From positions 21,589-85,588 of the forward strand of contig CAZXSV010000011.1 in assembly GCA_964642735.1 (NCBI GenBank): 64,000 nt of DNA, written 5' to 3'. The notes beneath the pieces are model-generated. The model searched no databases. It saw only the letters and a list, made by a program, of their open reading frames with translations, and was not told the origin of the DNA. Both the position numbers and the translations under genes were made by a program. The DNA comes from an uncultured Acidobacteriota bacterium (GTDB taxonomy: Bacteria; Acidobacteriota; UBA6911). This document shows positions 25,734-46,290 of the stretch, piece by piece (within the stretch, counting starts at the first letter, position 1; every line of letters starts with the position of its first letter).

Positions 25734-25735
25734 CC

Positions 25736-26701: not shown

Positions 26702-26702
26702 T

Positions 26703-26795: not shown

Positions 26796-27048
26796 GCGTC
26801 CTGAGGCAAAGCCGGAGTCTTAACGGGTTTCCCGCAAATGCCATAAGGAAGCGCCTTCCGCCGTGTGTTGCAGGTCTTCTTGATTGAAAATAAGACTCGG
26901 GCATAAAACATTCTCCAGTATTTTCAGGACTGCCGCGCTCCCCGGCGGAGCCGAAAAATTTATCCTGCCCGTTTCCGGATATGGCCTTAAATTCTCAAAG
27001 CCTTCCGTTTATAATGGCGAAAAAACATCAGACAAGAGGTTTGGAATT

Positions 27049-27837: not shown

Positions 27838-28064
27838 TCGTCCACAAAACCGGGAGTTTAACTATACGGGACGAAAAGCATCGGCCCGCCTTGCAGAGCG
27901 CCGATACGCCAGGAACCGATCGCGGCGAATGAGCAAAGGCGCCACGGTTGATTCGGGAGCAATGTTGGGAAGCATCCGCGACGGTATTTTTTTGCAGCCA
28001 CTGTCCCGAACATCCCGATAAATAGCAGGATTCTGTTGCATTTAAAACAAAGAAAGGAGTTGTC

Positions 28065-29753
28065 GTGAAAGCAATCATCATTGGAGGAGTGGCCGCGGGC
28101 CCCAAAGCCGCAGCTAGAATCATTCGCATGAAGCCCGATGCGGATGTAACGATCGTGGAAAAGGGTTTGTTCCTTTCGTACGCGGGATGCGGCCTTCCCT
28201 ATTATGTTTCCGGCGAAATTAAGGAGCAGAATGAACTGATGGAAACCGCTGCGGGCGTCGTCCGGGACGCTGCGTTTTTTCTGAGCGTCAAAAATCTGAA
28301 AGTCCAAAACAGAACAGAAGCCATCGAAATAGACCGCGGCGGCAAACGCGTCCATATTAAAGCTTTGTCAACAGGCAAAGAATCCTGGCTTCATTATGAC
28401 AAGCTCCTGCTGGCCACCGGCGCTTCCCCGGTGGTTCCTTCTATTCCCGGCGTGGAAAAAAAGAACGTTTTCACTCTTCACGGCATCCACGACGCCGAAG
28501 GAATCAAAAAAGCGCTGGCCGAACGAAAAGCCAAGGACGTCGTCATCATAGGCGGCGGCCTTATCGGAGTGGAAGCGACCGAAGCATTGGCCACTCATGG
28601 CTGCCGTGTAACGATTGTGGAAATGCTGCCGCAGGTTCTCAGCATGCTGGATTGGGAGATGGCCCGCCTGATCGAAAATTACTTGGAGTCCAACGGCGTC
28701 CGGGTGATGACCCAAACTAAAGCCCTTGCACTGGAAAGCCGGACTGGATCGGAGGACATCGTCCATTTTGTGCGAACCGACAAAGGAGATCTTCCCGCCG
28801 ACATGGTCATCCTGGCTATTGGCGTGCGACCGAACATTTCATTGGCGCAAAAAGCCGGACTGGCCATCGGCGAAAAAACCGGCGCGATCCGCGTCGACAG
28901 CCATATGCGCACCTCGGACCCGGACATTTACGCCGCGGGCGATTGCGTGGAATGCCTGGACATCCTGACCGGGGGCCCCTGCTATGTCCCGCTCGGCTCC
29001 ACGGCCAATAAGCAAGGCCGCGTGGCGGCAGTGAATATGTGCGGCGGCAATGAAGTATTTCCGGGCATTTTGGGCAGTTCGATCTGCAAAATATTCGATT
29101 ACTGCGCAGGCCGCACGGGCCTGACGGAGCGCGCAGCGAGCTCTTTGGGATATGACGTCCTCACCGCAATGGTCCCCGGAGCGGACAGGGCGCACTACAT
29201 GCCCAAATCCCAAACCCTGTTGATGAAGGTCGTTGCCGACAGGAAAAGCGGCAGGCTGCTGGGCGTTCAGGCGACTGGGCCCGGCGAAGGCGCCAAAAGA
29301 ATCGATGTCGCAGCTACAGCGATCACGGCGGGCATGACGCTGGATCAAATCGCCCATCTCGATCTTTCCTATGCTCCGCCTTACGCGTCCGCCATGGACA
29401 ACCTGATAACGGCGGCGAACGTGGCTCGAAACAAGCGGGATGGACTTATGAACGGCATCACGGCAGAATTCGTATGGCGCAAGATACAAAACGGGGAGGA
29501 TTTCGTCTTTCTCGATGTCCGGTCTCCCCAGGAGCACGCGCAGGTTCATCTGCCCAAGTCGATCCTGATCCCGTTGGGCGCATTGCGCAAGCGCCTCGCG
29601 GAACTGCCGAAAGACAAAGAAATCATCGCCTACTGCGCAATTTCGCTTCGCGGATATGAAGCGTCTCTGATTTTAAGAGCGGCCGGTTTCACGGATGTAA
29701 AAGTCCTGGACGGCGGCATAGCCATGTGGCCCTACGAGAAGGAAGAGCCGTAG
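28065..29753 (+). CDS. CoA-disulfide/persulfide reductase-like FAD oxidoreductase with a C-terminal rhodanese domain
   Basis: IIGGVAAGPKAA, the redox Cys in SYAGCGLPYY, and a second dinucleotide fold VVIIGGGLIGVE. The C-terminal rhodanese domain has IIAYCAISLRG. GTG start after AAAGGAG. Confidence 0.85.
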   Translation: MKAIIIGGVAAGPKAAARIIRMKPDADVTIVEKGLFLSYAGCGLPYYVSGEIKEQNELMETAAGVVRDAAFFLSVKNLKVQNRTEAIEIDRGGKRVHIKALSTGKESWLHYDKLLLATGASPVVPSIPGVEKKNVFTLHGIHDAEGIKKALAERKAKDVVIIGGGLIGVEATEALATHGCRVTIVEMLPQVLSMLDWEMARLIENYLESNGVRVMTQTKALALESRTGSEDIVHFVRTDKGDLPADMVILAIGVRPNISLAQKAGLAIGEKTGAIRVDSHMRTSDPDIYAAGDCVECLDILTGGPCYVPLGSTANKQGRVAAVNMCGGNEVFPGILGSSICKIFDYCAGRTGLTERAASSLGYDVLTAMVPGADRAHYMPKSQTLLMKVVADRKSGRLLGVQATGPGEGAKRIDVAATAITAGMTLDQIAHLDLSYAPPYASAMDNLITAANVARNKRDGLMNGITAEFVWRKIQNGEDFVFLDVRSPQEHAQVHLPKSILIPLGALRKRLAELPKDKEIIAYCAISLRGYEASLILRAAGFTDVKVLDGGIAMWPYEKEEP

Positions 29754-32111: not shown

Positions 32112-33503
32112 ATGACGAAACTTCAAAGAAAAACTCACAAAAATGGCGCGTATTATCCAATCATCTTCATGCTGCTGGCTTTTTCGGTCGGCCAGTTTTG
32201 GGCTGCAGAAAAAAATACGCCTGTCGTACGGGCGATTCTTTTCACTTCGCCGACCTGTCCGCACTGCGCCATGGTCAAAGAGGAAGTCCTGCCACCGCTT
32301 GCCGAACGCTATGGTCCGCAGTTGCAGGTCGTCGTAGTCAGTATTGCCACGACATCCGGCTATGAGCTTTTTCTGTCCGCTTGTATGAAGCATGCCCTCC
32401 TGCGACTTTCGGTGCCGTTGCTCATTGTGGGCAACACTCCCATGGTAGGCTCGGATGAAATACCCCAGAAATTTCCGGGCCTTATCGAGAAGTACATCGC
32501 CGAAGGAGGCATCGGGTGGCCCAACATCTCCGGACTGAACGCAATGCTTGCAGAAAGCCCGGCTTTCTCCCCCGAAGCGGCGCCCAGAGGCGAACAAGCC
32601 ACAGCCGTATCCGCTCCGGCGACTCAAGGGCATATTGCTTTGGATTTCGAACCTCCCGCCGACACTTCCGTCGCCAAGGCGGCGGCGCATGCAGAAAAAA
32701 CCTCGACCGCTGAGGCATCGCAATCTTCGCATGCCGCAAATCCAAAGGAGGCGGAGCGCGCGGCTTCCGCTCCGCCTCCGATTAAACCCGCAGAATCGGA
32801 CATCTCCCGAATCGACGAAACGGCGTCTGCCGGCTCTGCAATTCCGGCGCCCGAAGTTAAAGAGGGGCCTTCGGGAATAATTGATTTGACCGCCGATACG
32901 GCGGAGGCCGGCGTTTGGGATCGCATAAAGCGCGATAAATACGGCAACGGCCTCGCAATCCTGGTGTTGGCCGGGATGATCCTGACGCTTCTGGCTTCAA
33001 TGAAAGTGCTCAGGAAATCCTCATTCCAACCGGCGGAAACGAAAAATCCGCGTTTCGACTGGTTGATTCCGCTGCTGACTATCGCCGGCATGGGAGTGGC
33101 GGCTTATCTTTCGCATGTGGAACTGAGGCAGGTGGAAGCGGTCTGCGGGCCTGTAGGCGACTGCAATACCGTGAATCAAAGCGAATATGCGAAGCTTTTC
33201 GGCGTCCTGCCGATCGGAGTTCTTGGATTGTTTGGCTTCCTTGTCATCCTCGCCGTCTGGGCGCTTCGTCGATGGGGGCCGGAACGTCTTTCCCGATGGG
33301 CAGCCGCGGGAATTTTGGCAATGACAGGATTCGGCGTGCTCTTTTCGGTGTATCTGACTTTTCTCGAACCTTTTGTGATCGGGGCGACGTGCCTCTGGTG
33401 CCTCAGTTCGGCCGCAATTATGACAGCGCTCTACGCTCTCTCTCTCAAACCGGGGCGCCAGGCGTTTTCAGCGCTTTTCCGGACCCGCCGCCCTTCCGGC
33501 TGA
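32112..33503 (+). CDS. Thioredoxin-fold (CPHC) domain - low-complexity linker - VKOR membrane domain fusion
   Basis: FTSPTCPHCAMV, a roughly 150-aa Ala/Pro/Glu/Ser-rich linker, and a VKOR loop CGPVGDC with the TM motif GATCLWC. I prefer the ATG at 32112. Confidence 0.8.
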   Translation: MTKLQRKTHKNGAYYPIIFMLLAFSVGQFWAAEKNTPVVRAILFTSPTCPHCAMVKEEVLPPLAERYGPQLQVVVVSIATTSGYELFLSACMKHALLRLSVPLLIVGNTPMVGSDEIPQKFPGLIEKYIAEGGIGWPNISGLNAMLAESPAFSPEAAPRGEQATAVSAPATQGHIALDFEPPADTSVAKAAAHAEKTSTAEASQSSHAANPKEAERAASAPPPIKPAESDISRIDETASAGSAIPAPEVKEGPSGIIDLTADTAEAGVWDRIKRDKYGNGLAILVLAGMILTLLASMKVLRKSSFQPAETKNPRFDWLIPLLTIAGMGVAAYLSHVELRQVEAVCGPVGDCNTVNQSEYAKLFGVLPIGVLGLFGFLVILAVWALRRWGPERLSRWAAAGILAMTGFGVLFSVYLTFLEPFVIGATCLWCLSSAAIMTALYALSLKPGRQAFSALFRTRRPSG

Positions 33504-33806
33504 TCCCAAAAAACGGTCAAAATCAGGAGGGGTTGCTTCGTCCGACCGATCCTGGTTGTCCGATAAAACCGCCTCTGCCCCATCGCCCGGCCGCTTTGAA
33601 AAAGCTATTCCGGTATAAGGCGTTTTGACCACGCGGCCGCTTTCCCAACGGGAGTCCCGCTGCAGGCTATTATTTTCGTTTTGAAAATGCGCATAAAAGC
33701 AAAGATTCTGATGGCGTCCTCGATAAAGGGAGCATTCCAAACACGGCCCCCCGGTGAACGGACACGCCATTTTAGCCTTTTTCATTTCGCCTTCTTTTCC
33801 TTCCAC
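33468..33806 (-). CDS. Small Cys-rich hypothetical protein
   Basis: The track ORF starts at a GTG. The internal ATG at 33785 follows GGAAGGAAAAGAAGG and gives MKKAKMACPFTGGPCLECSLYRGRHQNLCFYAHF... The 3' end overlaps the convergent VKOR gene by 36 nt. No family recognised. Confidence 0.4.
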   Translation of the reverse strand: MEGKEGEMKKAKMACPFTGGPCLECSLYRGRHQNLCFYAHFQNENNSLQRDSRWESGRVVKTPYTGIAFSKRPGDGAEAVLSDNQDRSDEATPPDFDRFLGSAGRAAGPEKR

Positions 33807-33847: not shown

Positions 33848-33862
33848 GCAATATGCCTTCCA
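33848..33862 (-). promoter_or_regulatory. Sigma-54 promoter candidate for the small Cys-rich ORF
   Basis: The minus strand reads TGGAAGGCATATTGC with exact GG-N10-GC spacing. It is very similar to the 22048 candidate (TGGAAAGATTATTGC). Confidence 0.4.
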
Positions 33863-34021
33863 ATAACTTCAAATATCCTGCAACTGTCGGCGGTCGTGGA
33901 TTGCTTCCCGCAAATGTGGAAACATCAGCGAATTATCATGGGAGGCTGCAGCGGAAAATCCTTTTTATGCCGGCGCTGTCAACCTTTTATGCGCCGTTTT
34001 TCAAAAGTTGAATTCGGAGCG

Positions 34022-34034
34022 TTGCAAAATGCAA
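34022..34034. promoter_or_regulatory. Type-1 palindrome TTGCAAAATGCAA
   Basis: Perfect arms, centred about 167 bp upstream of the GG of the 33848-33862 promoter candidate, in non-coding DNA. Confidence 0.4.
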
Positions 34035-34879: not shown

Positions 34880-35413
34880 GACCGGGGATGAACGCCGTGC
34901 GAGTCTCAACCAACCTCGCCCGGATGGGTCGTTCCAGCCTGGCTTTTTCCGAATCCCGGACGTTTTCATGCCCACCCTTACAATTGTTTTGAGCACGGCA
35001 AATATGTCGGGATCGTCTCTGCGCCTTTGAAAAAAGCCAACTTCCTGCCCGATGGGGCGATCCCCTACCTAGAACCGACGCAGTTGCGCGGATTGCTTTT
35101 ATCTTTTAAAATCGAAGACGTTCCCGAGGTGAGCGGCCGCTATTTTCCGCTTTCCTGCGGCTATGCGGTGGTGGAGGCGATGCAAACCGGCAAGTACTGG
35201 GCTGGCATGCCGGATCCCGGAGAATATCAGATGGCTCTTACGGAAGAAGGAGATAGGATGTTTTGCATTCCGCAGAGCAAGCTTCCCGGCATGATGGCGG
35301 GTTTGAGGCAGGGCGGGATGTTCTCCTATCGAGACAACCCTATGGAGATGATGCCGGATTTCGAACGGCCTCCATTTTATGTAGAATTATTTAAAAGCTG
35401 GGGGCTCGAGTAG
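34880..35413 (+). pseudogene. Decayed DUF169 paralog (copy 3); the 5' boundary is uncertain
   Basis: The 3' half (35027..35413) is closely similar to the C-terminus of copy 1 (QLRGLLLS.K.EDVPEVSG...PDPGEYQ.ALT.EGD.MF...YVELFKSWG.E). In-frame homology continues upstream (HPYNCFEHGKY; GWVVPAW against HWCPAAV; TPCES against TPVAM). It is broken by an in-frame TGA at 34889-34891 where copy 1 has GGA (Gly), by loss of the HWC Cys, and by a deletion of several codons. Confidence 0.6.
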
Positions 35414-36467: not shown

Positions 36468-37532
36468 TTATCCGGAAGCTTTGGGAAAAGCCAGGACGGC
36501 TTCGGGACGCACGCAAATCCAGCGATCGTCCCCCGCAGAGACGCCGCTGGAAGAATCCCGGCAGAACGGATGGTAGGCGATAAGCGGAAACCCCGCATCC
36601 ATCTCCAATTCAAGGAAGGAAGGGCGAAATCGGACCTGAACGATTCTGGCTTTGAAGCGATTCCCATCCTTGGGATCGTTGTTTTCGGTCGCGAAAGCGA
36701 TTCCCTCGGGTCGAATAGCGAAAACAACCGGGCCTTCCAGCGATTTGCCGCTGCTGTGCAGAACGACGCCCGAAGGAGTTCTTATTCGGCAGCCTCCGGG
36801 GATTGTCTCGGCGACGCCTTCATTGAAGTTTCGCGTTCTCGTAAACTCCGCGATGAACAAAGTGGAAGGATTGGCGAGTATTTCCTGAATCGATCCCGCC
36901 TGTTCAATCGAACCCCGGTTCATGATGGCGATGCGATCCGCCACCAAAGAAGCCTCTTCGAAACTGTGACACACATGAAGAAACGTTCGATTGGAATCTT
37001 GTTGAATCCGCCTGAGTTCGCCCGCGAGTTGCGAACGCAGATTCTCGTCCAGAGCGCTTAAAGGCTCATCCAGCAGCAGAATGTTTGGCTGAGTGATCAG
37101 CGCCCTGCCGAGTGCGACTCGTTGCTTTTCGCCTCCGCTCAGGAAAAGCGGCAAGCGGTTCTGCAGAGGCGCGACTCCCAATTTTTCCATCATGGATTCC
37201 ACTCTCGTCCGGATTTCCGAGGGATTGATTTTGCGCGCTTTCAAGCCGTAGCCGAGGTTTTGCCGGACAGTCATGTTGGGAAACAGGGCGTAGTCCTGGG
37301 GCACGTATCCGATGTTTCTTTCTTCGGGATAGCAGCCGACGACGTCCCGGCCATTGATGCGGATGCCGCCGGAATCCGGCTTGTTTATTCCGGCGATGCA
37401 TTCCAGCAGAACGCTTTTCCCCGCTCCCGTAGGCCCCAGAAGAACGAAATACTCTCCCTCGTTTATCCGAAGATGGATGTCACGCAGGTCAAACTCGCCG
37501 AGATGGATGTTTAGTTTTTCAATCTGAATCAT
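36468..37532 (-). CDS. ABC transporter ATP-binding protein with a C-terminal TOBE-like domain (molybdate/tungstate/sulfate class)
   Basis: GPTGAGKS, LSGGEKQRVALGRAL, LLLDEPLSALD and a C-terminal beta-rich regulatory domain. The ATG at 37532 is 4 nt after the permease stop. Confidence 0.85.
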   Translation of the reverse strand: MIQIEKLNIHLGEFDLRDIHLRINEGEYFVLLGPTGAGKSVLLECIAGINKPDSGGIRINGRDVVGCYPEERNIGYVPQDYALFPNMTVRQNLGYGLKARKINPSEIRTRVESMMEKLGVAPLQNRLPLFLSGGEKQRVALGRALITQPNILLLDEPLSALDENLRSQLAGELRRIQQDSNRTFLHVCHSFEEASLVADRIAIMNRGSIEQAGSIQEILANPSTLFIAEFTRTRNFNEGVAETIPGGCRIRTPSGVVLHSSGKSLEGPVVFAIRPEGIAFATENNDPKDGNRFKARIVQVRFRPSFLELEMDAGFPLIAYHPFCRDSSSGVSAGDDRWICVRPEAVLAFPKASG

Positions 37533-37536
37533 GCCG

Positions 37537-38499
37537 TCACCACACGTATCCCCTGCCGCCCAGACGATGCAGAACGTAAATGCTGATCCCGCTGATGAAA
37601 ACCAACGCAAAGGCGATTCCAAAACCATATTCAAGCTCGCCATACTCGATTGCCGACCACATGGCGACAGGAAGAATGTCCGCCTGATGCAGCTGCAATT
37701 CCTGTAGAAAAGGAGAAAAACGGGACAGCGGAAGCTCGCGGAATGTGCCGCAAAATAAAAGAACCGCGCCGAATTCGGCCATCGCCCGCGCCCATGCCAG
37801 GATGAACCCGGCAAAGAGCCCCGTCCGACACAAGGGGAGCGTCACGGTCCGAAAAGCCCGCCAATGCGAACTGCCCAAGGAACGGGCCACGTGCTCGTAG
37901 CGGGGATGGACGCCGTCAAAGGCGGCCTTCCAGGCGCTCAGTCCGATGGCCAGCGATAGCACGAGTTGGGCGACGACAATGCCCGGAAAAACGGAGTGGG
38001 CGGCCTGAATATGAAAATGCGCCTGCAGCCTGGACAGAAACCCATGCTGAAAAACGACGATCAGACAAAGACCGACGGATGAAGCGGGCAGCACGATCAC
38101 CGAAGAAAACAGAACGTCAATGACGGAGCGTCCCGGAATCCGGAACCGCGACAACGCGTACGCCGAGGGAATGCCCAGGATTGCGGCGATCAAAGCGGTC
38201 AGAGTGGATGAGGCGATCGACAGATGAACCGAACGCCAGAAGGCGGGATCCTTCCACAATCCTCCGGCGAATTCATTCGCCCGGCTTGTTTTTCGCCACA
38301 AGTCCATCCCTTCCGTTGCAACGAGCTTTTTGGGAAACAGCTCCCCTGCGTTGCTTAAAAAAAGCCAGCAGGATGCAAGCGCCAGGAGAATGGCGGCGGC
38401 GTAAAAAACAGCGGCAAACAAATGGCCGGCTTTGCGGCTCGGGAGCACGGATGGATTGGACGACGGATTGCTACCAAACATAGCTCTTCCTCCCGACAA
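37537..38499 (-). CDS. ABC transporter permease (CysTW/ModB class), subunit 2
   Basis: EAA-loop region ARSLGSSHWRAFRTVTLPL and six hydrophobic segments. Confidence 0.85.
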   Translation of the reverse strand: MSGGRAMFGSNPSSNPSVLPSRKAGHLFAAVFYAAAILLALASCWLFLSNAGELFPKKLVATEGMDLWRKTSRANEFAGGLWKDPAFWRSVHLSIASSTLTALIAAILGIPSAYALSRFRIPGRSVIDVLFSSVIVLPASSVGLCLIVVFQHGFLSRLQAHFHIQAAHSVFPGIVVAQLVLSLAIGLSAWKAAFDGVHPRYEHVARSLGSSHWRAFRTVTLPLCRTGLFAGFILAWARAMAEFGAVLLFCGTFRELPLSRFSPFLQELQLHQADILPVAMWSAIEYGELEYGFGIAFALVFISGISIYVLHRLGGRGYVW

Positions 38500-39277
38500 T
38501 CCGCACTGCGCCCATCGCGGCGATCGCCATCCAGATGCAAAGGAGGCTCAACGAAACCACCCAGCCCATCATGCCCCCGTTCCAGTCGAGATAGACGGCG
38601 AAAGGAAGCGTATCGGTGCGCCCTTCCGTCCCGCCCACAAAAAGCATCAACGCCTCCCATTCCGCCGCGGCTCTGGCCCACACGACTATCAAGCTGGCGA
38701 CAATTCCCCGGCGAGCCAACGGAATGGTGATTTGAAAAAAGGTTCGCGCGCGCGAGGCGCCAAGGGACCGGGATACAAATTCCAAGCGAGGATTGACCGC
38801 GTCGAAGGCCGTTTTCATCAAGCGGGCGCAAAAAGCCACGGTGACGACAAACTGTGCGAACACAACTCCCGCCGCCGTGCGGCCGAGATCGAGTCCCAGC
38901 AGCGTCAAAAGGTCGCGCAACGGCGGCGTATGCGTCAATCCGAAAAGAAACGCGCCGACGGCGGCCGGAGGGACAAGCACCGGCAGATCGATGATCGTGG
39001 CCATAAGCCGAGGGCACGGGAAGCGGAAACGGGACAGGGCGTATCCTGCGAAGATTCCGAAAACAAGCGAAAATCCTGTGGCCAGCGTGGCTGTCCAGAT
39101 TGTCAGCCAGAGGCGTTTCCAGAGCCTCGGATGGCTGAAAAAATAAAGGCTGTCGCTAAAACCCAGATAAAAAATGTTGCTCAAAACGAGCAAAAAATAT
39201 CCGATCAGGATGATGCTCACCGACGCCAGACAAATGACCGGCCATATCCGGTTGCGGCTCGACGAAGATTTCTTCAT
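38471..39277 (-). CDS. ABC transporter permease (CysTW/ModB class), subunit 1
   Basis: SRSLGASRARTFFQITIPL EAA loop. I prefer the ATG at 39277 (MKKSSSSRNRIWPVI...); the long track extension to 39685 overlaps the SBP gene. Confidence 0.85.
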   Translation of the reverse strand: MKKSSSSRNRIWPVICLASVSIILIGYFLLVLSNIFYLGFSDSLYFFSHPRLWKRLWLTIWTATLATGFSLVFGIFAGYALSRFRFPCPRLMATIIDLPVLVPPAAVGAFLFGLTHTPPLRDLLTLLGLDLGRTAAGVVFAQFVVTVAFCARLMKTAFDAVNPRLEFVSRSLGASRARTFFQITIPLARRGIVASLIVVWARAAAEWEALMLFVGGTEGRTDTLPFAVYLDWNGGMMGWVVSLSLLCIWMAIAAMGAVRIVGRKSYVW

Positions 39278-39303
39278 TGAATAATTCCGAATCGCGGGGC
39301 TTC

Positions 39304-40284
39304 TCAGTCCCCCGCGCGAATTGTTTTCCGTTGGCGCGTCACTTCTCCCCCAAGCGGGCCGACCTCTTCTTGGCCGGTTTTGCGGGAAGGATCCTTGACG
39401 GCGGCGGCGGCGTTCATAAGCCATTGCATCAGCTGGTCGACGGCGCGGTCTTCCGCGGCTTGGAATCCGTCCTTGTCCCGCGGAATCGAGCCTACCGCGT
39501 ATGCATGTCTCAAAAAGATCTCTTTGCCTTGATCCGAAAGCATAAAGTTCTTCAGCGAAACAGCCGCCCGAGGATGTTTTGAAAAAGCAAGGGTTGCGAC
39601 CGGAAGGCGCACTACCGCACGGTACCGGTGTGGCAGCGGCAGCACCTCGCAGTCGCGCAGGTACAGTACCGCTGTAGTCGCCCAAACGATCGTGGCGTCG
39701 ATGAGATTATGCTGGGCGGCGTTGCCTAGCTCTGGAATGCATTTAGCGCTAAAGGACGCATTTTTCCGGACCTCCTCCAAAATGCCGGCTTTTTTGAAGA
39801 CTTTTTCATGCTCGACTCCGATCGCGCAGGATCGAGGATTCCCCAAACCGACCCTGACATCCGGTCTGGCAAAGTCTTCTATCCCCCGAATCTGCTTTGG
39901 ATTCCCACGCGGCGTCAAAATGACGGTGATGAAATAGGCGGCAATGTCCCGATTGGGATCGTAATCGGTCACAAAGCCTCTCTCGGCCGCCTGGAGCACG
40001 TAGAACTCTTCGCCAGGCATGAAAAGATCGCCTTCTTGGGAACGGCTGAGATCCGCCAAGAAATAACCGGAACCCTTGAAGGAAAAATTGACGCGCACGT
40101 CGGGATGGATTTTTTGAAACTTCTGCTGGACTTCCCTGAGAGAAGAACGCTGTCCGACCCCTGCGTGAAAAAGCAGGGTCTGTTCACGCTTGCATTGGGC
40201 GCAGGGAATTAAAAGAAGAACGACCCCTGTGCAACAGAACAGCCGTTTAAATCCAAGGAGCTTTCTATAGTTCATAAAATGCAT
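39304..40284 (-). CDS. ModA/WtpA-like periplasmic oxyanion-binding protein with a ~70-aa C-terminal extension
   Basis: Signal or lipoprotein-like N-terminus. NFSFKGSGYFLADLSRSQEGDLFMPG parallels the ModA sfggSg...aDvf.sa pattern. Ligand specificity is unknown. Confidence 0.7.
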   Translation of the reverse strand: MHFMNYRKLLGFKRLFCCTGVVLLLIPCAQCKREQTLLFHAGVGQRSSLREVQQKFQKIHPDVRVNFSFKGSGYFLADLSRSQEGDLFMPGEEFYVLQAAERGFVTDYDPNRDIAAYFITVILTPRGNPKQIRGIEDFARPDVRVGLGNPRSCAIGVEHEKVFKKAGILEEVRKNASFSAKCIPELGNAAQHNLIDATIVWATTAVLYLRDCEVLPLPHRYRAVVRLPVATLAFSKHPRAAVSLKNFMLSDQGKEIFLRHAYAVGSIPRDKDGFQAAEDRAVDQLMQWLMNAAAAVKDPSRKTGQEEVGPLGGEVTRQRKTIRAGD

Positions 40285-40493: not shown

Positions 40494-41651
40494 CTAAGCG
40501 TTCGCTTCTATGGATGAAATGCCGCGAAGCCGCCGGACGGTATCGGCCAGGGCGGCGACGACAGCATCGACGTCCTCCTCTTTCGTGCTCCTGCCGAACG
40601 AGACCCTGACGGAGCTTTGCGCTTCCTTGGGAGAAAGCCCCATCGCGAGAAGGACATGCGAGGGCTCCGGGTCGCCTGTGGAGCATGCGGAGCCCGTCGA
40701 AACATAGATTCCGCGAAGGTCCAATCCAAGAACGATAGATTCCCCGTCGACGGACTCGAAACTCAGGCTGGAAGTGTTCGGCGCGCGCGGCGAGGACGAT
40801 CCGTTGATTTTCACTCGCGGCGCCGCGGAAACGATCCGGGACTCAAACCGGTCGCGAAGGCGCCGCAGCCGCCTGGATTCGGCAGCCGAAGACTCGACCG
40901 CCAAGGCGAGCGCGTGAGCGAATCCGACAATGCCGGCGACATTTTCCGTTCCGGCGCGCAAACCGCGCTCATGCGGCCCGCCGGTGAGGATGGGATCGAC
41001 CGGAGTCCCTTCGCGGACGTACAGCGCAGCCGTCCCCTTGGGGCCGTATATCTTGTGGCCGGAAACGGAAATAAGGTCGGCGCCGAGCTCGCACAACCGG
41101 CCGGGCATCTTGCCCGCCGTCTGCACCGCGTCCGTGTGAAATACAACGCCGCGCCTTTTAGCCAGCGCGGCGATCTCCTCAACCGGCTGGAGCACGCCGG
41201 TCTCGTTGTTGGCGTGCATGACGCTGATCAGGACGGTCTCCGGGCGCAAACTTGATTCGACGTCCTCAACGCGGACGGCGCCGCCGGCCCCGACCGGCAG
41301 ATAGGAGATCCGTCTGCCTTCAGATTCCAGGGCTTTGCACGTGTGGAGCACGGCGTGGTGTTCGATCGCCGTTGTTACGATGTGATCGCCGCGCGACCGC
41401 AACGAGCGCGCCACTCCGCGAATCGCAAGGTTGTCCGATTCCGTGCCGCAGGAAGTAAAAAATACTTCCGCAGGCTTGCACCCGAAGCAATCGGCGACGC
41501 TCTCCCGGGCCTTTTCCACGGCGAGCCTGGCCTGATTGCCGAAGCTGTAAGGGCTGGAGGGATTGCCCCAGCGATCGTTCAGGAAAGGAAGCATGGCTTC
41601 CAGGACCCGGCCGTCCAGCGGGGTTGTCGCGTTGTAATCGAGATAGATCAC
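40494..41651 (-). CDS. nifS: Cysteine desulfurase NifS
   Basis: IYLDYNATTP, SGHKIYGPKG (PLP Lys) and STGSACS (active Cys loop). The GTG at 41651 overlaps the nifU stop (GTGA). The track start at 41867 lies inside nifU. Confidence 0.9.
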   Translation of the reverse strand: MIYLDYNATTPLDGRVLEAMLPFLNDRWGNPSSPYSFGNQARLAVEKARESVADCFGCKPAEVFFTSCGTESDNLAIRGVARSLRSRGDHIVTTAIEHHAVLHTCKALESEGRRISYLPVGAGGAVRVEDVESSLRPETVLISVMHANNETGVLQPVEEIAALAKRRGVVFHTDAVQTAGKMPGRLCELGADLISVSGHKIYGPKGTAALYVREGTPVDPILTGGPHERGLRAGTENVAGIVGFAHALALAVESSAAESRRLRRLRDRFESRIVSAAPRVKINGSSSPRAPNTSSLSFESVDGESIVLGLDLRGIYVSTGSACSTGDPEPSHVLLAMGLSPKEAQSSVRVSFGRSTKEEDVDAVVAALADTVRRLRGISSIEANA

Positions 41652-42121
41652 CGTTTCTTCTCCTCGCGAGCGAGCTTTCTCGCCTCCCAATCCCTTATGG
41701 CCGCCTGAAGGGCCAAAACGCCCAGCAGCGAACAGTGCTTTTTCCTTTCCGGAATCCCTCCGAGGGCCTCCACAACGTCGTCGTCCGTTATTCTCCCAGC
41801 TTCTTCTATAGACTTCCCTTTCGCCAGGGCGGTCAACATGCTGCTGGTGGCGATCGCACCCGGACATCCGAAAGATTTAAACGCAATCTTTTCGATCCGC
41901 TCGGACTTGACCGATATCCAGAGCTTCATCTGGTCGCCGCAGGAGGGGTCGCCGACCAATCCGTATCCATCCGTCTCGCTCTCCGGCAGTTCTCCTGCAT
42001 TGCGCGGATTGATGAAATGATCGATGACATCTTCATTGTAAAAAAGGACAGGTCCCGAATACCGGGGCTGTTCTTTATTCTCATCCGTATTCTCATCCGT
42101 CGGTGGTTTTTCCATAGCCAT
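41648..42121 (-). CDS. nifU: NifU/IscU-type Fe-S scaffold (N-terminal-domain type)
   Basis: GDPSCGDQMKLWI, FGCPGAIATSS and KKHCSLL, the three scaffold Cys motifs. Confidence 0.85.
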   Translation of the reverse strand: MAMEKPPTDENTDENKEQPRYSGPVLFYNEDVIDHFINPRNAGELPESETDGYGLVGDPSCGDQMKLWISVKSERIEKIAFKSFGCPGAIATSSMLTALAKGKSIEEAGRITDDDVVEALGGIPERKKHCSLLGVLALQAAIRDWEARKLAREEKKR

Positions 42122-42167
42122 TGATTCTCCCCGCCATCACTTTACACGGGTTTTCGCAGAAAGTCAG

Positions 42168-42182
42168 GCGATCCCTAAGCCA
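42168..42182 (-). promoter_or_regulatory. Sigma-54 promoter candidate upstream of nifU-nifS
   Basis: The minus strand reads TGGCTTAGGGATCGC with exact spacing. The -12 box is TCGC (GC conserved). It lies 47 nt upstream of the ATG at 42121. Confidence 0.35.
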
Positions 42183-42271
42183 TCCCACAGGCCGATGCGC
42201 CGGCTTGACCTCGGGGCGTCCGGAAGATGTGGGAAGGGATGGAATGCAACAAAATTGAATATAATGTTTTA

Positions 42272-42284
42272 TTGCAGAATGCAA
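42272..42284. promoter_or_regulatory. Type-1 palindrome TTGCAGAATGCAA
   Basis: Perfect arms, centred about 97 bp upstream of the GG of the 42168-42182 candidate, in the thioesterase/nifU intergenic gap. Confidence 0.4.
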
Positions 42285-42291
42285 TGAGCAT

Positions 42292-42765
42292 TTACAGCGC
42301 TTCGTCGCTCCCTCCGGCCTGGATCAAATCCCGGTCGATAAATTTGGCCGAGGCCCGGACCAGAGTCCGCCCTTCCTGCTCCAGCTCCGCTTCCATCACA
42401 TACAGCGGCGGCTCATATTCCCTGATCCAGGCCTTGACGGTAGCCGGGCGATCGATTTCCACCGGAAGAAGGAATCGGACGATGAGCCTTGCCGTCACCG
42501 CAACGATTCTGCGGGCGAAAAGACAATTGGCCATCGCAGAATCCAGCAGCATAGAACTGACGCCTCCGTGCAGAAAACCCGGATACCCTTGATACACCCG
42601 GCTGCATGAAAACTCCGCCTGGACGCCCTTGTCGTCCCGAAGGGAAAACTCGAGTGCAAGCCCCGTAGCGTTCCCCGCGCTGCACGTGATGCAGTTCGGA
42701 TGCGCCAGTCTCCTGGTAGTTTCAAGATCTTGCGTGCAAGGGTCAACCATATAAATATCGTTCAA
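42292..42765 (-). CDS. PaaI-family hotdog-fold thioesterase
   Basis: YQGYPGFLHGGVSSMLLDSAMANC core motif, 157 aa. Confidence 0.75.
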   Translation of the reverse strand: MNDIYMVDPCTQDLETTRRLAHPNCITCSAGNATGLALEFSLRDDKGVQAEFSCSRVYQGYPGFLHGGVSSMLLDSAMANCLFARRIVAVTARLIVRFLLPVEIDRPATVKAWIREYEPPLYVMEAELEQEGRTLVRASAKFIDRDLIQAGGSDEAL

Positions 42766-42775
42766 AATGAAAGAT

Positions 42776-43150
42776 TTAATGACCGCACTGCCCGCCGTGT
42801 TCCTGACAGGAATCGTTCATTGAAAGCTCTTGAAGCCTGTCTTCTTTCAATAATGCGATATTTTCGTCGATGGTTGCGGCGCCCGCTCTGTAAACCTTTA
42901 CGCCCATCGCGTTGAATTTCGAAACGGCCCCCGGGCCCATGCCGCCTACAATCATCGCATCGACGCTGTTCCCTCCAAGGGTCATAAACGGATTGCAGAC
43001 GCCATGCTCCCGATGAGAGTTGGCATTATCCACCGCGGAAATCTGCAGATTGTCGACGTCGACAATGACAAATGCGGGCGCCGAGCCGAAGTGTCCATAA
43101 ACAGCGCTTTTAAGTCCTTGATTGAATTGAACCGGGAAACCAACCTTCAT
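42776..43150 (-). CDS. NifX/NifB-C-terminal-like cofactor-binding-fold protein with a Cys/His tail
   Basis: VYGHFGSAPAFVIVD...AMIVGGMGPGAVSKFNAMGVKVY, with tail DSCQEHGGQCGH. Confidence 0.8.
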   Translation of the reverse strand: MKVGFPVQFNQGLKSAVYGHFGSAPAFVIVDVDNLQISAVDNANSHREHGVCNPFMTLGGNSVDAMIVGGMGPGAVSKFNAMGVKVYRAGAATIDENIALLKEDRLQELSMNDSCQEHGGQCGH

Positions 43151-43231
43151 CTCTTTCTCCTTCGATTAAATTTAATTGGGAACGTTTCTCAAACCGAGCC
43201 GATCTCCTTCCAAAACTCGTCCTGCTTTCAA

Positions 43232-43246
43232 GCAATTTGATGGCCC
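43232..43246 (-). promoter_or_regulatory. Sigma-54 promoter candidate for the nifX-like-thioesterase unit
   Basis: The minus strand reads GGGCCATCAAATTGC with exact GG-N10-GC spacing. It lies about 85 nt upstream of the ATG at 43150. Confidence 0.4.
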
Positions 43247-43309
43247 TATTATAGGAAATTTTCTCTACGATTTAAACCTCTTCGCTCTGTCTTCGCACGG
43301 TTGCACGAC

Positions 43310-43324
43310 AGGCACGCCGATTGC
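43310..43324 (+). promoter_or_regulatory. Sigma-54 promoter candidate for DUF364 copy 2 (and possibly EBP2)
   Basis: AGGCACGCCGATTGC has GGCACG at -24 and TTGCT at -12 with exact spacing. It lies about 75 nt upstream of the ATG at 43399. Confidence 0.65.
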
Positions 43325-43398
43325 TTTTTTGAACACTTTCGATACAATGGGGCCGGGCGAGAGGATGGGTCGCTTTTCCACAATGCGGAGGATTTTTC

Positions 43399-44145
43399 AT
43401 GCTGGCGAATGAAATAGCCGATCACGGACTCACGCTCGTCGATCGTCACACCGTTTCCGACATCCGAATCGGTCTTGGCTATACAGCGGTCCTGCTCGAC
43501 GACGGCCGGTGCGGCTTGGCCTACACCCTGCACGAACAGCCCTACGAGTCCTGCAGCGTGATTTCCGAAGCCGGGACACTGGCCGGAAGAAAAGCGTCGG
43601 AATTGATCCCCTGGATGAAATCTAAGGATGTCACGGCCTGCGCCGTCGGGTTGGCGACGCTCAACGCCCTGATCCGTCCGCATGCCGCGGCGGCGGAATC
43701 CGACATCATCGACCTGCTGCCGGTGAACCCCGGCGATCGAGTCGGGATGGTCGGCTATTTCGGCCCGCTGGTTGCGCCGATAAAAAAACGGGCTCAAGCC
43801 CTCTACATCTTCGAACGCAAGGCCAATTCCGAATACGACATATTGCCCGAATCGGCGGCGGAAGAACTGCTTCCCACATGCCAGGTTGCCATCCTGTCCG
43901 CGACCGCAATCATGAACCACACCATCGACAGGCTGCTCGGATTGTCCGAATCAGCCCGCGAAATTGCAGTCCTTGGCCCTTCCACTCCTTTTCTGCCTGA
44001 AATCTTCCGTTCGTACGGCGTAACAATGCTTTCAGGAATTCAAGTCGTCGATTCCCGCCGGATCCTTCAGATTGTGAGCGAAGCGGGCGGCACCCGGCTG
44101 TTTGGCCGTGCGGTCCGGAAGCTTTCCTTGCGCTGCGCCGCATAA
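43399..44145 (+). CDS. DUF4213/DUF364 protein, copy 2
   Basis: IRIGLGYTAVLLDDGRCGLAYTL and VGMVGYFGP, collinear with copy 1. Confidence 0.75.
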   Translation: MLANEIADHGLTLVDRHTVSDIRIGLGYTAVLLDDGRCGLAYTLHEQPYESCSVISEAGTLAGRKASELIPWMKSKDVTACAVGLATLNALIRPHAAAAESDIIDLLPVNPGDRVGMVGYFGPLVAPIKKRAQALYIFERKANSEYDILPESAAEELLPTCQVAILSATAIMNHTIDRLLGLSESAREIAVLGPSTPFLPEIFRSYGVTMLSGIQVVDSRRILQIVSEAGGTRLFGRAVRKLSLRCAA

Positions 44146-44198
44146 TCAGAGAACCGGCGCCCCCGGCCGCAATCCCGGTTCCGGTCGGCATCGACTGT

Positions 44199-44242
44199 TT
44201 GCATAATGCAAATGTTTTGACATTATTTAATGCATAATGCAA
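44199..44242. promoter_or_regulatory. Pair of type-1 palindromes (TTGCATAATGCAA and ATGCATAATGCAA), 31 bp centre to centre
   Basis: Sites at 44199-44211 and 44230-44242, ending 25 nt before the EBP2 ATG. The order and spacing match the pair at 23637-23680. Confidence 0.5.
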
Positions 44243-44266
44243 TATTTTTCCGGGAAGGACGGCAAG

Positions 44267-45637
44267 ATGAAGGAACCGGACGAACGGGAAAAAACAATTC
44301 TGGACTCGATTAATGAAGGCGTTTTCACGGTCGATCTCGACTGGCGGATCACCGCCTTCAATCGGGCGGCCGAACACATAACCAGGGTAAGCAGGCGGGA
44401 GGCTCTGGGACAGCAGTGCTTTGAAGTTTTCCGGGCCAGCATCTGCGAAAACGCATGCGCGCTTAGACGGACGATGTCCAGCGGTAAACCGGTGCTGAAC
44501 GCCACCGCTCATATCGTCAGCCGGGGCGGAGAGCGCATTCCCATCCGCATCTCCACCGCTCTCTTGAAAAACAGCGCCGGGCAAACCATCGGTGGAGTCG
44601 AAACTTTCCAGGATTTGAGCCCCATCGAACAACTGCAGAAGGAATTAAAATCCCGATACACATTTGAAGACATCGTCGGCCGAAGCGCGGCCATGATGAA
44701 GCTCTTCGACATCCTGCCGCAAATCGCCGACAGCTCCAGCACCGTTTTGATTGAAGGGCCCAGCGGCACGGGCAAAGAGCTGTTTGCGAAAGCCATCCAC
44801 AGTCTCTCCCCGCGAAAGAAAAAGCCGTTTATCGCGGTCAACTGCGCAGCCCTGCCCGACACCCTGCTGGAAAGCGAGCTTTTCGGCCATAAAGCCGGCG
44901 CCTTCACCGACGCGCGGCGCGACAAACCCGGGCGTTTTGCGCTGGCGAACGGCGGCACCCTGTTTCTGGACGAAATCGGGGACATTTCGCCGGCGATGCA
45001 GATACGGCTCCTGCGCGTCCTCCAGGAGCGCATGATCGAACCCCTGGGATCCGTCGAACCGATAAAAGTGGACGTGCGGATTGTCGCGGCCACGAACCGG
45101 GTCTTGAGCCGTCTGGTCCAGGAAGGACGCTTCCGCGATGATCTTTTCTATCGCATCCGCGTCGTCAGTCTGAACCTGCCGAGCCTCTGCCAGCGCCGGG
45201 AGGACATTCCGCTCCTGGTGGATCATCTGGTGGCAAAGCTGAACCTGCTTCAGGGAAAAGACATCGAGGGCGTATCGGAAGAAGTAATGGCGCAACTGAT
45301 GGAATACGAATACCCCGGGAATGTCCGGGAACTGGAGAATATTATCGAGCAGGCCTTCGTGCTGTGCCGCGGGCGGCTGATTGAGCTTCATCACCTTCCG
45401 GCCGAACTCCGTCCCGCCGGGGCTTCGGGCATCGGGAAAAGCAACCCCATGTCTCTTCAGGCCATGGAAAAGCTGCTGATCAGCGAGGCGCTTCGCCGCC
45501 ACAGAGGCAGCCGGAGCAAAGCAGCCAGACAGCTGGGGATCAACCCGAGCACGCTTTACCGGAAAATGAAGTTTCTGAACATTGATTTTAAAAAAGAACA
45601 GCTGGGAATCCGGCAGGCGCCCGGGAAAAAAGACTGA
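44267..45637 (+). CDS. Sigma-54-dependent transcriptional activator, PAS - AAA+ - Fis-HTH (EBP2, paralog of EBP1)
   Basis: GPSGTGKELFAKAIH, GAFTDA loop, C-terminal AARQLGINPSTLYRKMKFL. The ATG at 44267 (GGAAGGACGG RBS) aligns with the EBP1 N-terminus, whereas the track start at 44237 lies inside the palindrome. Confidence 0.9.
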   Translation: MKEPDEREKTILDSINEGVFTVDLDWRITAFNRAAEHITRVSRREALGQQCFEVFRASICENACALRRTMSSGKPVLNATAHIVSRGGERIPIRISTALLKNSAGQTIGGVETFQDLSPIEQLQKELKSRYTFEDIVGRSAAMMKLFDILPQIADSSSTVLIEGPSGTGKELFAKAIHSLSPRKKKPFIAVNCAALPDTLLESELFGHKAGAFTDARRDKPGRFALANGGTLFLDEIGDISPAMQIRLLRVLQERMIEPLGSVEPIKVDVRIVAATNRVLSRLVQEGRFRDDLFYRIRVVSLNLPSLCQRREDIPLLVDHLVAKLNLLQGKDIEGVSEEVMAQLMEYEYPGNVRELENIIEQAFVLCRGRLIELHHLPAELRPAGASGIGKSNPMSLQAMEKLLISEALRRHRGSRSKAARQLGINPSTLYRKMKFLNIDFKKEQLGIRQAPGKKD

Positions 45638-45800: not shown

Positions 45801-46190
45801 TTATTTCTTTCCAGTCACGCTGATCACTCGGATCACGCCCGTTCCCGAAAAGGAATCGCCATAAACAGTCGTTCCGGATAGTTTCAAAACGTTTTCGCCT
45901 TTCACTACCGCATCTTTAACATCCGCAGAATTAAACTTTGCGACGAAGTTTCCCCGATCGTCGGATTTCCACCAGGCGATCGGAATGTCATTCAGCGTGA
46001 CGCTGGCGCCGACCACGATGCCATACGCAATATCGGTGTGGATAGTGACAACTTCCCCCTGATAGGCAAGATTGAGGGTGCTCGGGGCAATATCGATGTC
46101 GATGGCTATGTCCGCGCTTTTAGCCGGAGCGGCAAAAAACATCAACGCCAAAAAACTCAGCGCGAGGGTTGGAAACATTAACTTTTTCAT
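45801..46190 (-). CDS. Small secreted beta-rich hypothetical protein
   Basis: MKKLMFPTLALSFLALMFFAAPAKSAD signal peptide, followed by about 100 aa with alternating beta-strand-like patterns. I prefer the ATG at 46190 (GGGAG RBS). Confidence 0.6.
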   Translation of the reverse strand: MKKLMFPTLALSFLALMFFAAPAKSADIAIDIDIAPSTLNLAYQGEVVTIHTDIAYGIVVGASVTLNDIPIAWWKSDDRGNFVAKFNSADVKDAVVKGENVLKLSGTTVYGDSFSGTGVIRVISVTGKK

Positions 46191-46275
46191 CGGCGCAACT
46201 CCCATGCAGAGAAATTAAAGCTTCTCTGCTCCAATTAAATTCAAAAATCTGAAATTAAGCCTGATTATTATTAAC

Positions 46276-46290
46276 GCAATAATTATGCCA
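46276..46290 (-). promoter_or_regulatory. Sigma-54 promoter candidate for the small secreted-protein gene
   Basis: The minus strand reads TGGCATAATTATTGC, close to the TGGCAC-N5-TTGC consensus, with exact spacing. Confidence 0.7.

Follow-up and report, generated by a model that had tools for sequence, protein, structure and literature searches.

Gene content of the locus

The 64,000-nucleotide stretch analysed here (the window; contig CAZXSV010000011.1 of assembly GCA_964642735.1, with positions counted from its first letter) comes from an uncultured bacterium of the Acidobacteriota. Between 40494 and 45637 it holds six genes, referred to below as module 2, in which a leftward nifX-thioesterase-nifU-nifS run faces a rightward pair, a DUF364 gene (DUF364-2) and a gene for a sigma-54 enhancer-binding protein (EBP2). 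An earlier note on this DNA had placed six such genes at these positions and on these strands, and the open reading frame (ORF) list, Pfam and NCBIfam bore this out. The genes are as follows.

40494..41651, minus strand: nifS/misS-type cysteine desulfurase, 385 amino acids (Pfam Aminotran_5, E 2.8e-84)
41648..42121, minus strand: nifU/misU single-domain IscU-type scaffold (Pfam NifU_N, E 7.3e-39)
42292..42765, minus strand: PaaI/THEM4-type hotdog thioesterase (Pfam 4HBT, 30 bits against a cut-off of 20.6)
42776..43150, minus strand: NifX2, small protein of the NifX/ORP family PF02579 (Pfam Nitro_FeMo-Co, E 3.3e-19)
43399..44145, plus strand: DUF364-2, DUF4213 and DUF364 domains (Pfam, E 4.5e-45 and 5.2e-22)
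44237..45637, plus strand: EBP2, PAS-sigma54-HTH_8 activator (Pfam)

The nifS and nifU genes are adjacent and co-oriented; nifS starts at GTG 41651 within a GTGA overlap with the nifU stop codon, and a 457-amino-acid ORF at 40494-41867 is over-extended. Judging from the sequence, EBP2 probably starts at ATG 44267 and the thioesterase at ATG 42750.

Module 2 is a second copy, of ancient divergence, of the Orp ("orange protein") regulatory module of anaerobes. OrpR/orp is an already known kind of system, an identity that the earlier note had not recognised. What is new relative to known orp clusters is the cargo placed under an OrpR paralog, namely a MIS-type pair of NifS and NifU, a hotdog thioesterase with a likely metal site, and DUF364, together with a set of boxes and promoters that is conserved across a clade of Acidobacteriota.

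Two paralogous OrpR-type activators

According to Pfam, EBP2 is composed of PAS_4/PAS_9, Sigma54_activat (E 2.8e-69), AAA_lid_14 and HTH_8 domains, with no receiver domain. Its PAS domain carries a C-x8-C-x3-C motif (C61, C70 and C74) with a glutamate (E63) at +2 from the first cysteine, and the same motif with an acidic residue was found in EBP1, the activator of a second gene set in the window (module 1), and in 35 of 36 related enhancer-binding proteins. In Desulfovibrio vulgaris (DvH), the sigma-54 activator OrpR serves the orange-protein (orp) operons, and its C52, E/D54, C61 and C65 are required for redox sensing by a [4Fe-4S] cluster (PMC8359166). The loop that contacts sigma-54 reads GAFTDA in EBP2, as listed for DVU2106 (PMC4641369), and GAFTGA in EBP1. 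EBP2 was likened to DvH OrpR through motifs published in papers, not through a full-sequence comparison. Because of the PAS-AAA+-HTH_8 architecture, the C-x8-C-x3-C motif with its glutamate, the GAFTDA loop and the presence of its relatives beside orp clusters, EBP2 is considered OrpR-like, and both activators are classed from their sequences as OrpR-type sigma-54 enhancer-binding proteins. The EBP2 PAS domain appears to hold the ligand set of a redox-sensitive [4Fe-4S] cluster, and the cluster itself is predicted.

In BLASTP, EBP2 and EBP1 (22141-23517) were collinear over their full length with 54% identity (E 6e-175), and DUF364-2 and its module 1 counterpart DUF364-1 (21125-21859) shared 33% identity (E 1e-29); in neither case are the paired proteins members of unrelated families. 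The earlier note had described these pairs as a duplicated regulator-plus-DUF364 unit wired to different cargo. The paralogy (33% and 54%) and the different cargo stand, while a simple duplicated block does not, as both the gene order and the trees speak against it. EBP1 precedes DUF364-1 in module 1, and DUF364-2 precedes EBP2 in module 2. When the phylogenies that the note had proposed were built by neighbour-joining, each copy grouped with homologs from other phyla and not with its partner, contrary to a recent block duplication. EBP2 fell within an Acidobacteriota clade that is sister to GAFTDA activators of the PVC group, and EBP1 (GAFTGA) clustered with activators of Verrucomicrobia. DUF364-1 grouped with a copy from Elusimicrobiales, outside the DUF364-2 clade. 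The nearest relatives of EBP2 outside the Acidobacteriota are 62-73% identical and adjoin canonical orp clusters. Because the EBP and DUF364 copies group with homologs of other phyla, the two units would therefore be ancient paralogs or separate acquisitions rather than a recent block duplication.

Sigma-54 promoters and palindromic boxes of module 2

The regulatory elements predicted in module 2 are listed below.

43231..43247, minus strand: sigma-54 promoter of the nifX-thioesterase unit, GGGCCATCAAATTGCT
43310..43324, plus strand: sigma-54 promoter of DUF364-2, AGGCACGCCGATTGC
42164..42182, minus strand: sigma-54 promoter-like site before nifU, TGGCTTAGGGATCGCCTGA, with a weak -12 element (TCGC)
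42272..42284: OrpR-type box TTGCAGAATGCAA between the thioesterase gene and nifU, some 95 bp upstream of the promoter of nifU
44199-44211 and 44230-44242: pair of OrpR-type boxes, TTGCATAATGCAA and ATGCATAATGCAA, 31 bp apart in the spacer between DUF364-2 and EBP2
44217..44246, plus strand: sigma-70-like promoter of EBP2, TTGACA-18-AATATT, bracketed and overlapped by the box pair

The spacer between DUF364 and nifX was aligned for the window and 11 orthologous loci. Across these 12 loci exactly two blocks are conserved, back to back, and both have the GG-N10-GC geometry of sigma-54 promoters: tGAGGCC-N4-AAATTGCAT faces nifX, and GGCAC-N5-ATTGCAT faces DUF364. In one locus (L002), a separate alignment showed that an upstream "coding" extension called on DUF364 is actually the sigma-54 promoter of DUF364. 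The 12-locus alignment, together with k-mer and palindrome counting, revealed no proximal activator sites between the divergent promoters; only the two promoter blocks are conserved. A nifU promoter of the form TGGCAC-N5-ATTGCCTGA occupies the same place in nine loci (L001, L005, L006, L007, L009, L010, L011, L012 and L019). A conserved RNA structure in the nifX leader, which an apparent AGGAGG/CCTCCT complementarity had brought up, was rejected, as RNAalifold predicted no more than 3 pairs (-0.6 kcal/mol) across six leaders, without compensatory changes. An Rfam search of the window returned no match.

The palindrome TTGCA-N3-TGCAA was first spotted in the module 1 spacer and then searched for. 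The window holds 10 sites against 2.7 expected, a number that none of 100 shuffles reached. The module 1 pair (23637/23668) has the same 31-bp spacing as the pair in front of EBP2. The latter pair is kept, at a spacing of 31-32 bp, in 13 Acidobacteriota loci, including L001, L002, L005, L006, L009, L013-L016 and L018-L020, and the box in the thioesterase-nifU spacer is present in 11 orthologous loci. In orp clusters of Planctomycetota (L033, L051, L055, L058 and L070), box pairs flank the activator gene. From these sites, EBP2 most likely binds TTGCA-N3-TGCAA, the candidate sites being the pair over its own promoter and the single box upstream of nifU. The sigma-70 promoter of DvH orpR is autorepressed and overlapped by binding sites (PMC3897727), and by analogy the sigma-70-like promoter of EBP2 with its box pair matches the layout of orpR autorepression.

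Conservation of module 2 and its counterparts in other phyla

We collected 84 loci from context look-ups and from a scan of one genome per species, and mapped the window proteins onto them by tblastn, counting a gene as a neighbour when it lay within 10 kb. Counts were made for 17 non-redundant Acidobacteriota loci and 64 loci of other phyla (Planctomycetota, Verrucomicrobiota, Kiritimatiellia, Lentisphaerae, Elusimicrobia and Ignavibacteria), many of the latter on short contigs. The neighbours were distributed as follows.

NifX: 16 of 17 Acidobacteriota loci, 34 of 64 others
NifU: 15 of 17 Acidobacteriota loci, 10 of 64 others
NifS: 14 of 17 Acidobacteriota loci
DUF364: 14 of 17 Acidobacteriota loci, 3 of 64 others
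Activator: EBP2 ortholog in 13 of 17 Acidobacteriota loci, any enhancer-binding protein in 22 of 64 others
MinD-Fer4: 2 of 17 Acidobacteriota loci, 32 of 64 others
Mrp: 1 of 17 Acidobacteriota loci, 30 of 64 others
Radical-SAM: 2 of 17 Acidobacteriota loci, 20 of 64 others

About 17 Acidobacteriota species genomes share the layout in which DUF364 and the activator face nifX-thioesterase-nifU-nifS, with 55-89% protein identity and with the gene order seen in the window. The typical order in the other phyla is activator, NifX (one or more), MinD, MinD, a NifU-like gene in some, Mrp and thioesterase; it was checked with Pfam in L033, where a CoA-disulfide reductase-rhodanese fusion (CoADR-rhodanese) comes next.

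Some loci depart from the common plan. L001 (8593-9075), L013 and L014 have an additional gene between DUF364 and nifX. It encodes a DUF134 protein behind a strong sigma-70-like promoter (TTGACA...CATAAT), and its first codons (ATGGTnAGGCCAnTAAATTGCAG) mimic the sigma-54 promoter sequence of nifX. In L013 and L014, nifU and nifS are missing after the thioesterase gene.

NifS, NifU and the small carrier NifX2

The best NCBIfam match of NifS is TIGR03402 (FeS_nifS), at 492.8 bits against a cut-off of 530.75, and that of NifU is TIGR03419 (NifU_clost), at 142.3 bits against 187.9, both short of the cut-off. The NifS translation contains the SGHK motif with the pyridoxal-phosphate lysine and the GSACS active-site loop, and that of NifU retains the three scaffold cysteines. 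MIS NifS-NifU is regarded as the least understood system of Fe-S biogenesis and has been described without carriers, chaperones or known dedicated regulators (PMC13066941).

NifX2 consists of a single Nitro_FeMo-Co domain of about 120 residues (69.4 bits in Pfam; cut-off 26.3). Its best NCBIfam match is the Di-Nase domain of MrpORP, and its matches in the Protein Data Bank (PDB) are MTH1175 (1eo1), 1o13 and the D. gigas ORP (2wfb, E 3e-5). It has an HxxHGxCNP motif and ends in a tail with cysteine and histidine, DSCQEHGGQCGH; the tail DSCxEHGGQCGH is kept in all 15 aligned Acidobacteriota orthologs, with histidine for the second cysteine in L016. NifX2 and the module 1 protein NifX1 share 32% identity over 76 residues. 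We regard NifX2 as a small cluster carrier of the NifX/ORP family, for which cluster binding is predicted. MrpORP transfers Fe-S clusters to Orp proteins in vitro, and Orp proteins bind them (PMC6345978); the D. gigas ORP holds a Mo-Cu-sulfide cluster, according to work cited among the references of the same paper.

The hotdog thioesterase

An AlphaFold2 model of the thioesterase (pLDDT 75, falling below 50 for residues 27-34) matched hotdog acyl-CoA thioesterases in Foldseek with a probability of 1.0 and a TM score of about 0.6 (2ov9, 4gah, 3f5o and 2fs2), with THEM4, THEM2 and PaaI among its neighbours, while sequence identity to any solved structure is about 20%. HGG66-68 (G67), Asp75 and Thr91 are 99-100% conserved and are spaced as Gly/Asp161/Thr177 of THEM4, with Asp 8 residues on from the HGG amide and Thr/Ser 16 residues after Asp. 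The catalytic set is intact, and hydrolysis of acyl-CoA would be a candidate activity.

When a profile of the thioesterase family was run against a library of 50%-identity cluster representatives, 137 representatives were obtained at E<=1e-30, and 149 sequences were aligned. His22, Cys25 and Cys28 are conserved in 95% of these 149 representatives, Cys81 in 88% and Cys54 in 63%; among orp-linked thioesterases, the conservation of Cys54 rises to 91%. On this pattern, His22, Cys25, Cys28 and Cys81 likely form a metal site beside the active-site helix. The N-terminal HCxxCG motif is also present in 2prx, a structural-genomics homolog from an unrelated context, so that a structural zinc would be the conservative reading of the motif.

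There are 186 close relatives of the thioesterase at 60-80% identity, from Acidobacteriota metagenome-assembled genomes where named, and in PVC-group phyla the same family closes canonical orp clusters. The thioesterase is a conserved, so far undescribed gene of orp clusters in several phyla. The earlier note had linked it to Fe-S assembly and named independent transcription together with lack of linkage in related genomes as the outcome that would refute this; the gene is instead retained, in Acidobacteriota between nifX and nifU and in other phyla as the last gene of orp clusters. The literature search yielded no report that ties a PaaI-type thioesterase to Fe-S assembly or orp, and neither the thioesterase nor DUF364 is mentioned in the orp literature searched. 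Loci with a CoADR-rhodanese gene at most 10 kb from the thioesterase are L002, L016, L031 and L033; they make up 2 of the 17 Acidobacteriota loci and 2 of the 64 others.

In two family members (P0304 and P0348), the thioesterase is fused to an N-terminal class-I S-adenosylmethionine (SAM) methyltransferase (Methyltransf_11), and a free-standing Methyltransf_11 gene lies near module 1 (13026-13697). A look for functional hints among fusions gave only these methyltransferase fusions and one fusion to a PS-decarboxylase fragment, which are uninformative for Fe-S chemistry.

DUF364 and the adjacent ABC importer

Both Pfam domains of DUF364-2 (PF04016 and PF13938) score above the gathering score, at 153.3 and 78.4 bits, and its PDB homologs are 3npg and 3l5o. 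Orthologs of DUF364-2 that are 64-76% identical adjoin orthologs of EBP2. The sole characterised DUF364 member, Orf5 of Streptomyces, cyclises methyl-SAM in secondary metabolism (PMC12930334); at such a distance in sequence, its chemistry cannot be transferred to DUF364-2. In Methanococcus maripaludis, a DUF364 gene lies inside the modABC operon and is cofit with nifH.

An ABC importer, absent from the earlier note, follows nifS on the same strand.

36468..40284, minus strand: ABC importer, with a binding protein (39304-40284), permeases (in 38471-39685 and 37537-38499) and an ATPase with TOBE domain (in 36468-37814)

Its Pfam domains are SBP_bac_11, BPD_transp_1 and ABC_tran with TOBE_2, and the nearest PDB structure to the binding protein is ModA (4kd5). 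All equivalog cut-offs were missed: modA 56.2 against 62.5 bits, TIGR01581 149 against 210, WtpB 116-123 against 340 and WtpC 334.5 against 440. From these matches the importer is clearly of the molybdate/tungstate/sulfate family type. After nifS, no strong terminator was found and a sigma-70-like site is present; window scans detected neither a sigma-54 site nor a box in front of the importer, and it is near the module in only 2 of the 17 Acidobacteriota loci (L005 and L007). As neither kind of element was found before it, we regard the importer as loosely tied to the module, with transcriptional read-through as a possible link.

Module 1 and other candidate regulon sites in the window

Module 1 and its regulatory sites are arranged as follows.

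21125-21859, minus strand: DUF364-1
22048-22062, minus strand: sigma-54-like site of module 1
22141-23517, minus strand: EBP1
23542-23560, minus strand: sigma-54-like site TGGCACGGCGTCTGCATGA directly upstream of EBP1, 77-120 bp from the box pair
23637-23649 and 23668-23680: module 1 box pair

In view of these sites, EBP1 may be sigma-54-dependent and self-activating, unlike EBP2 with its sigma-70-like promoter. The module encodes a NifX-DUF5320 protein and two MinD/CbiA ATPases with ferredoxin inserts (MinD-Fer4) and, divergently, an Mrp protein whose best NCBIfam match is MrpORP, behind a perfect sigma-54 consensus (TGGCACGATCATTGC). By its gene content, module 1 is an orp-type cluster. The genes that follow this consensus on the plus strand (23893-29753) encode Mrp, an FmdB-type zinc ribbon, a radical-SAM protein, a sulfide-dependent Thi4 thiazole synthase and the CoADR-rhodanese fusion; in loci of Planctomycetota, the same last three kinds of gene are again found after the thioesterase gene.

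Similar elements occur elsewhere in the window. A thioredoxin gene (14915-15304, plus strand; WCGPC; TIGR01068, 115.6 bits), masked by a longer ORF on the opposite strand, has upstream a sigma-54-like site, TGGCACGCTCAATGC (14873-14887), and, 87 bp upstream, a box, TTGCATTATGCAA (14786-14798), and probably belongs to the same regulon, as far as these elements indicate. A small cysteine-rich ORF (33468-33806, minus strand; MKKAKMACPFTGGPCLECSLYRGRHQNLCF...) is accompanied by a sigma-54-like site, TGGAAGGCATATTGC (33848-33862), and, about 160 bp upstream, a perfect box, TTGCAAAATGCAA (34022-34034). The 274-amino-acid plus-strand ORF that covers these elements (33848-34034) has no Pfam match, and its 5' end is probably not real. 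Just downstream of EBP2 and on the opposite strand, a 134-amino-acid ORF (45801-46205) with a signal-peptide-like N-terminus and no Pfam match is preceded, about 70 bp upstream, by a near-consensus sigma-54 site, TGGCATAATTATTGC (46276-46290).

DUF169 (COG2043) genes recur by the module, at 13893-14675 and 35027-35413 in the window and at 12111-12836 in L002, and a DUF169 gene follows nifS on the opposite strand in 9 of the 17 Acidobacteriota loci. In the window these are one full copy and one 128-amino-acid ORF that matches only the C-terminal half of the model; two C_GCAxxG_C_C proteins are encoded nearby.

Proposed function of module 2 and alternatives

We consider it probable that module 2 is a paralogous, redox-gated OrpR-type regulon for MIS-type assembly and trafficking of Fe-S (possibly Mo/W-sulfide) clusters that serves the Orp machinery of module 1. 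The computations show gene identities, paralogy, conserved synteny, conserved sigma-54 promoters and boxes and an intact catalytic set in the thioesterase; from these we infer the following scheme. In a reduced, anoxic cell, holo, reduced EBP2 would drive the promoters of nifX, nifU and DUF364, while repressing its own sigma-70-like promoter through the box pair spaced by 31 bp. NifS and NifU would build Fe-S clusters and pass them to the Cys/His-tailed NifX2, which would hand them to the module 1 Orp machinery, namely the MinD-ferredoxin ATPases, Mrp and NifX-like proteins. The thioesterase and DUF364 would contribute conserved accessory activities.

Several observations weigh against this scheme. 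The 248-bp spacer between the divergent promoters is free of boxes in every locus, and on both sides the nearest boxes are at a distance of about 0.9-1 kb. The box does not have the sequence of the DvH OrpR site, GGGCGYRTTTTGCGCCC, and in the window the nifU promoter has a weak -12 element and a single good box. As the same box consensus occurs in both modules, promoters cannot be assigned to one activator or the other, and "wired to different cargo", as the earlier note put it, therefore cannot mean exclusive wiring. NifS, NifU and Mrp all score under the NCBIfam equivalog cut-offs, and the EBP and DUF364 trees are neighbour-joining trees without support values. The cellular function of the Orp complex is itself unknown (PMC8359166). 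Finally, the host belongs to an uncultured Acidobacteriota lineage, and the regulon reading is computational.

The simplest alternative is that NifS and NifU are a general MIS-type housekeeping pair and that the activator, DUF364, the NifX-like protein and the thioesterase are chance neighbours. Such pairs do serve as the general Fe-S system of many anaerobes and have been described without accessory components (PMC13066941), and L013 and L014 carry nifX-thioesterase without nifU and nifS. Chance is hard to reconcile with a six-gene arrangement found in some 17 species genomes at 55-89% protein identity, with the conservation of sigma-54 promoters and OrpR-type boxes before nifX, nifU and DUF364, or with the NifU-like gene and thioesterase inside canonical orp clusters of PVC phyla, and we judge this explanation very improbable. 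A product other than an Fe-S cluster deserves somewhat more attention: the importer would bring in an oxyanion, DUF364 would chelate or process it, NifS would give the sulfide and the NifX-like protein would carry a Mo/W-sulfide heterometal cluster. NifX2 belongs to the family of the D. gigas ORP (2wfb), a holder of Mo-Cu-sulfide as cited in the references of PMC6345978, the ModA/WtpBC-like importer comes after nifS on its strand, and mod-like genes are found after the thioesterase in L027 and after the module in L005 and L007. The importer is nearby in only 2 of 17 Acidobacteriota loci, however, with its own sigma-70-like site and neither box nor sigma-54 site, every transporter match is below the family cut-off, and NifX2, unlike ORP, has conserved Cys/His ligands suited to an Fe-S cluster. 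A heterometal product is thus an unlikely outcome.

The other two alternatives concern the role of the hotdog protein. The earlier note had suggested an acyl-thioester or CoA-linked step that would fit the CoADR-rhodanese gene at 28 kb, the enzyme hydrolysing a CoA-linked thioester or a CoA-persulfide-type species. In line with this, HGG66-68, Asp75 and Thr91 are conserved and spaced as the catalytic residues of THEM4, the structural matches are acyl-CoA thioesterases, and several of these structures contain CoA, and the CoADR-rhodanese gene lies downstream of Mrp on the same strand, Mrp itself being behind a sigma-54 promoter of perfect consensus. The fusion gene is found less than 10 kb from the thioesterase in L002, L016, L031 and L033, but such proximity is rare (2 of the 17 and 2 of the 64 loci); the sequence does not reveal the substrate, the literature search found no link between PaaI-type thioesterases and Fe-S assembly, and the two SAM methyltransferase fusions point to another small-molecule substrate. 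CoA chemistry is a possibility that we would still call doubtful. Alternatively, the protein may chiefly bind a metal or cluster as an adaptor, or sense a ligand, its His/Cys3 site docking on, or taking a cluster from, NifU, Mrp or NifX. The conservation of His22, Cys25 and Cys28 (95%) and Cys81 (88%) in 149 unbiased representatives, with Cys54 at 91% in orp-linked members, speaks for such a role, as do the constant proximity of the gene to those of cluster carriers and the ability of hotdog folds to sense ligands, FapR being among the structural matches. The catalytic Asp and Thr are nevertheless better conserved (99%), the HxxCxxC motif also occurs in 2prx and may be a structural zinc site, and the model is of low confidence towards the N-terminus (pLDDT below 50 at residues 27-34), which leaves the adaptor role improbable. 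A bolder proposal, to which we give little weight, would make the His/Cys3 hotdog thioesterase an integral component of Orp/MIS metallocluster assembly or trafficking, acting via a thioester-linked or CoA/phosphopantetheine-linked intermediate, and the OrpR paralog the sigma-54 counterpart of IscR, gating Fe-S biogenesis by redox state.

The Orp system has been studied only in D. vulgaris. If module 2 is the regulon described above, it joins the Orp and MIS systems physically and probably transcriptionally, and it proposes an Fe-S-sensing sigma-54 regulator and a carrier of the NifX/ORP family for the MIS pair. It also adds two undescribed conserved partners, the metal-site hotdog thioesterase and DUF364, and offers concrete DNA elements in the form of three promoters and of a 13-bp box, which is a mark of Planctomycetota orp clusters as well. 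These features give a reason to seek the function of Orp in cluster assembly and not in cell division.

Comparison with known systems

The closest known counterpart is the DvH orp cluster with OrpR (DVU2103-DVU2109; OrpR is DVU2106). Shared with it are a one-component PAS-AAA+-HTH sigma-54 activator with C-x8-C-x3-C, an acidic residue and GAFTDA, and, predicted here from sequence, paired palindromes, sigma-54 promoters before operons of the NifX/ORP family and a sigma-70 promoter of the activator that lies under the sites. The MinD-Fer4 ATPases and Mrp of the DvH cluster are supplied here by module 1. In DvH, the OrpR regulon was limited to two orp operons by ChIP-seq (PMC8359166), and the module 2 cargo, nifX-thioesterase-nifU-nifS and DUF364, has no described member in that regulon. 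Module 2 further differs from DvH in its box (TTGCA-N3-TGCAA, not GGGCGYRTTTTGCGCCC), in the distance of about 1 kb between the divergent promoters and the boxes, and in the presence of two paralogous activators in one window.

With the MIS/NIF-like NifS-NifU pairs of non-diazotrophic anaerobes, the module 2 pair shares a desulfurase and a single-domain IscU-type scaffold, translational coupling and the best matches TIGR03402/TIGR03419. Unlike MIS as described, it stands among genes for a NifX-like carrier, a hotdog protein, DUF364 and a putative Fe-S-sensing sigma-54 activator. IscR, a repressor of the Rrf2 family, is sigma-70-dependent and responds to cluster occupancy. Module 2 resembles the IscR-isc arrangement in that a regulator predicted to hold an Fe-S cluster lies beside, and probably controls, Fe-S assembly genes; it differs in that EBP2 is a sigma-54 AAA+ activator, the DvH homolog of which reads redox potential.

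The thioesterase has the hotdog fold and the HGG/Asp/Thr-Ser constellation in common with THEM4, THEM2, PaaI and 2prx, and the HCxxCG motif with 2prx, and is set apart from all four by the additional conserved Cys81 (and Cys54) and by its fixed genomic association with orp or NifSU. DUF364-2, finally, shows the same DUF4213 and DUF364 architecture and the association with metal-related genes seen for other DUF364 proteins (Dhaf4260, 3l5o; 3npg; the modABC-linked protein of M. maripaludis; Streptomyces Orf5), and unlike these it stands behind a predicted sigma-54 promoter, beside an OrpR-type activator.

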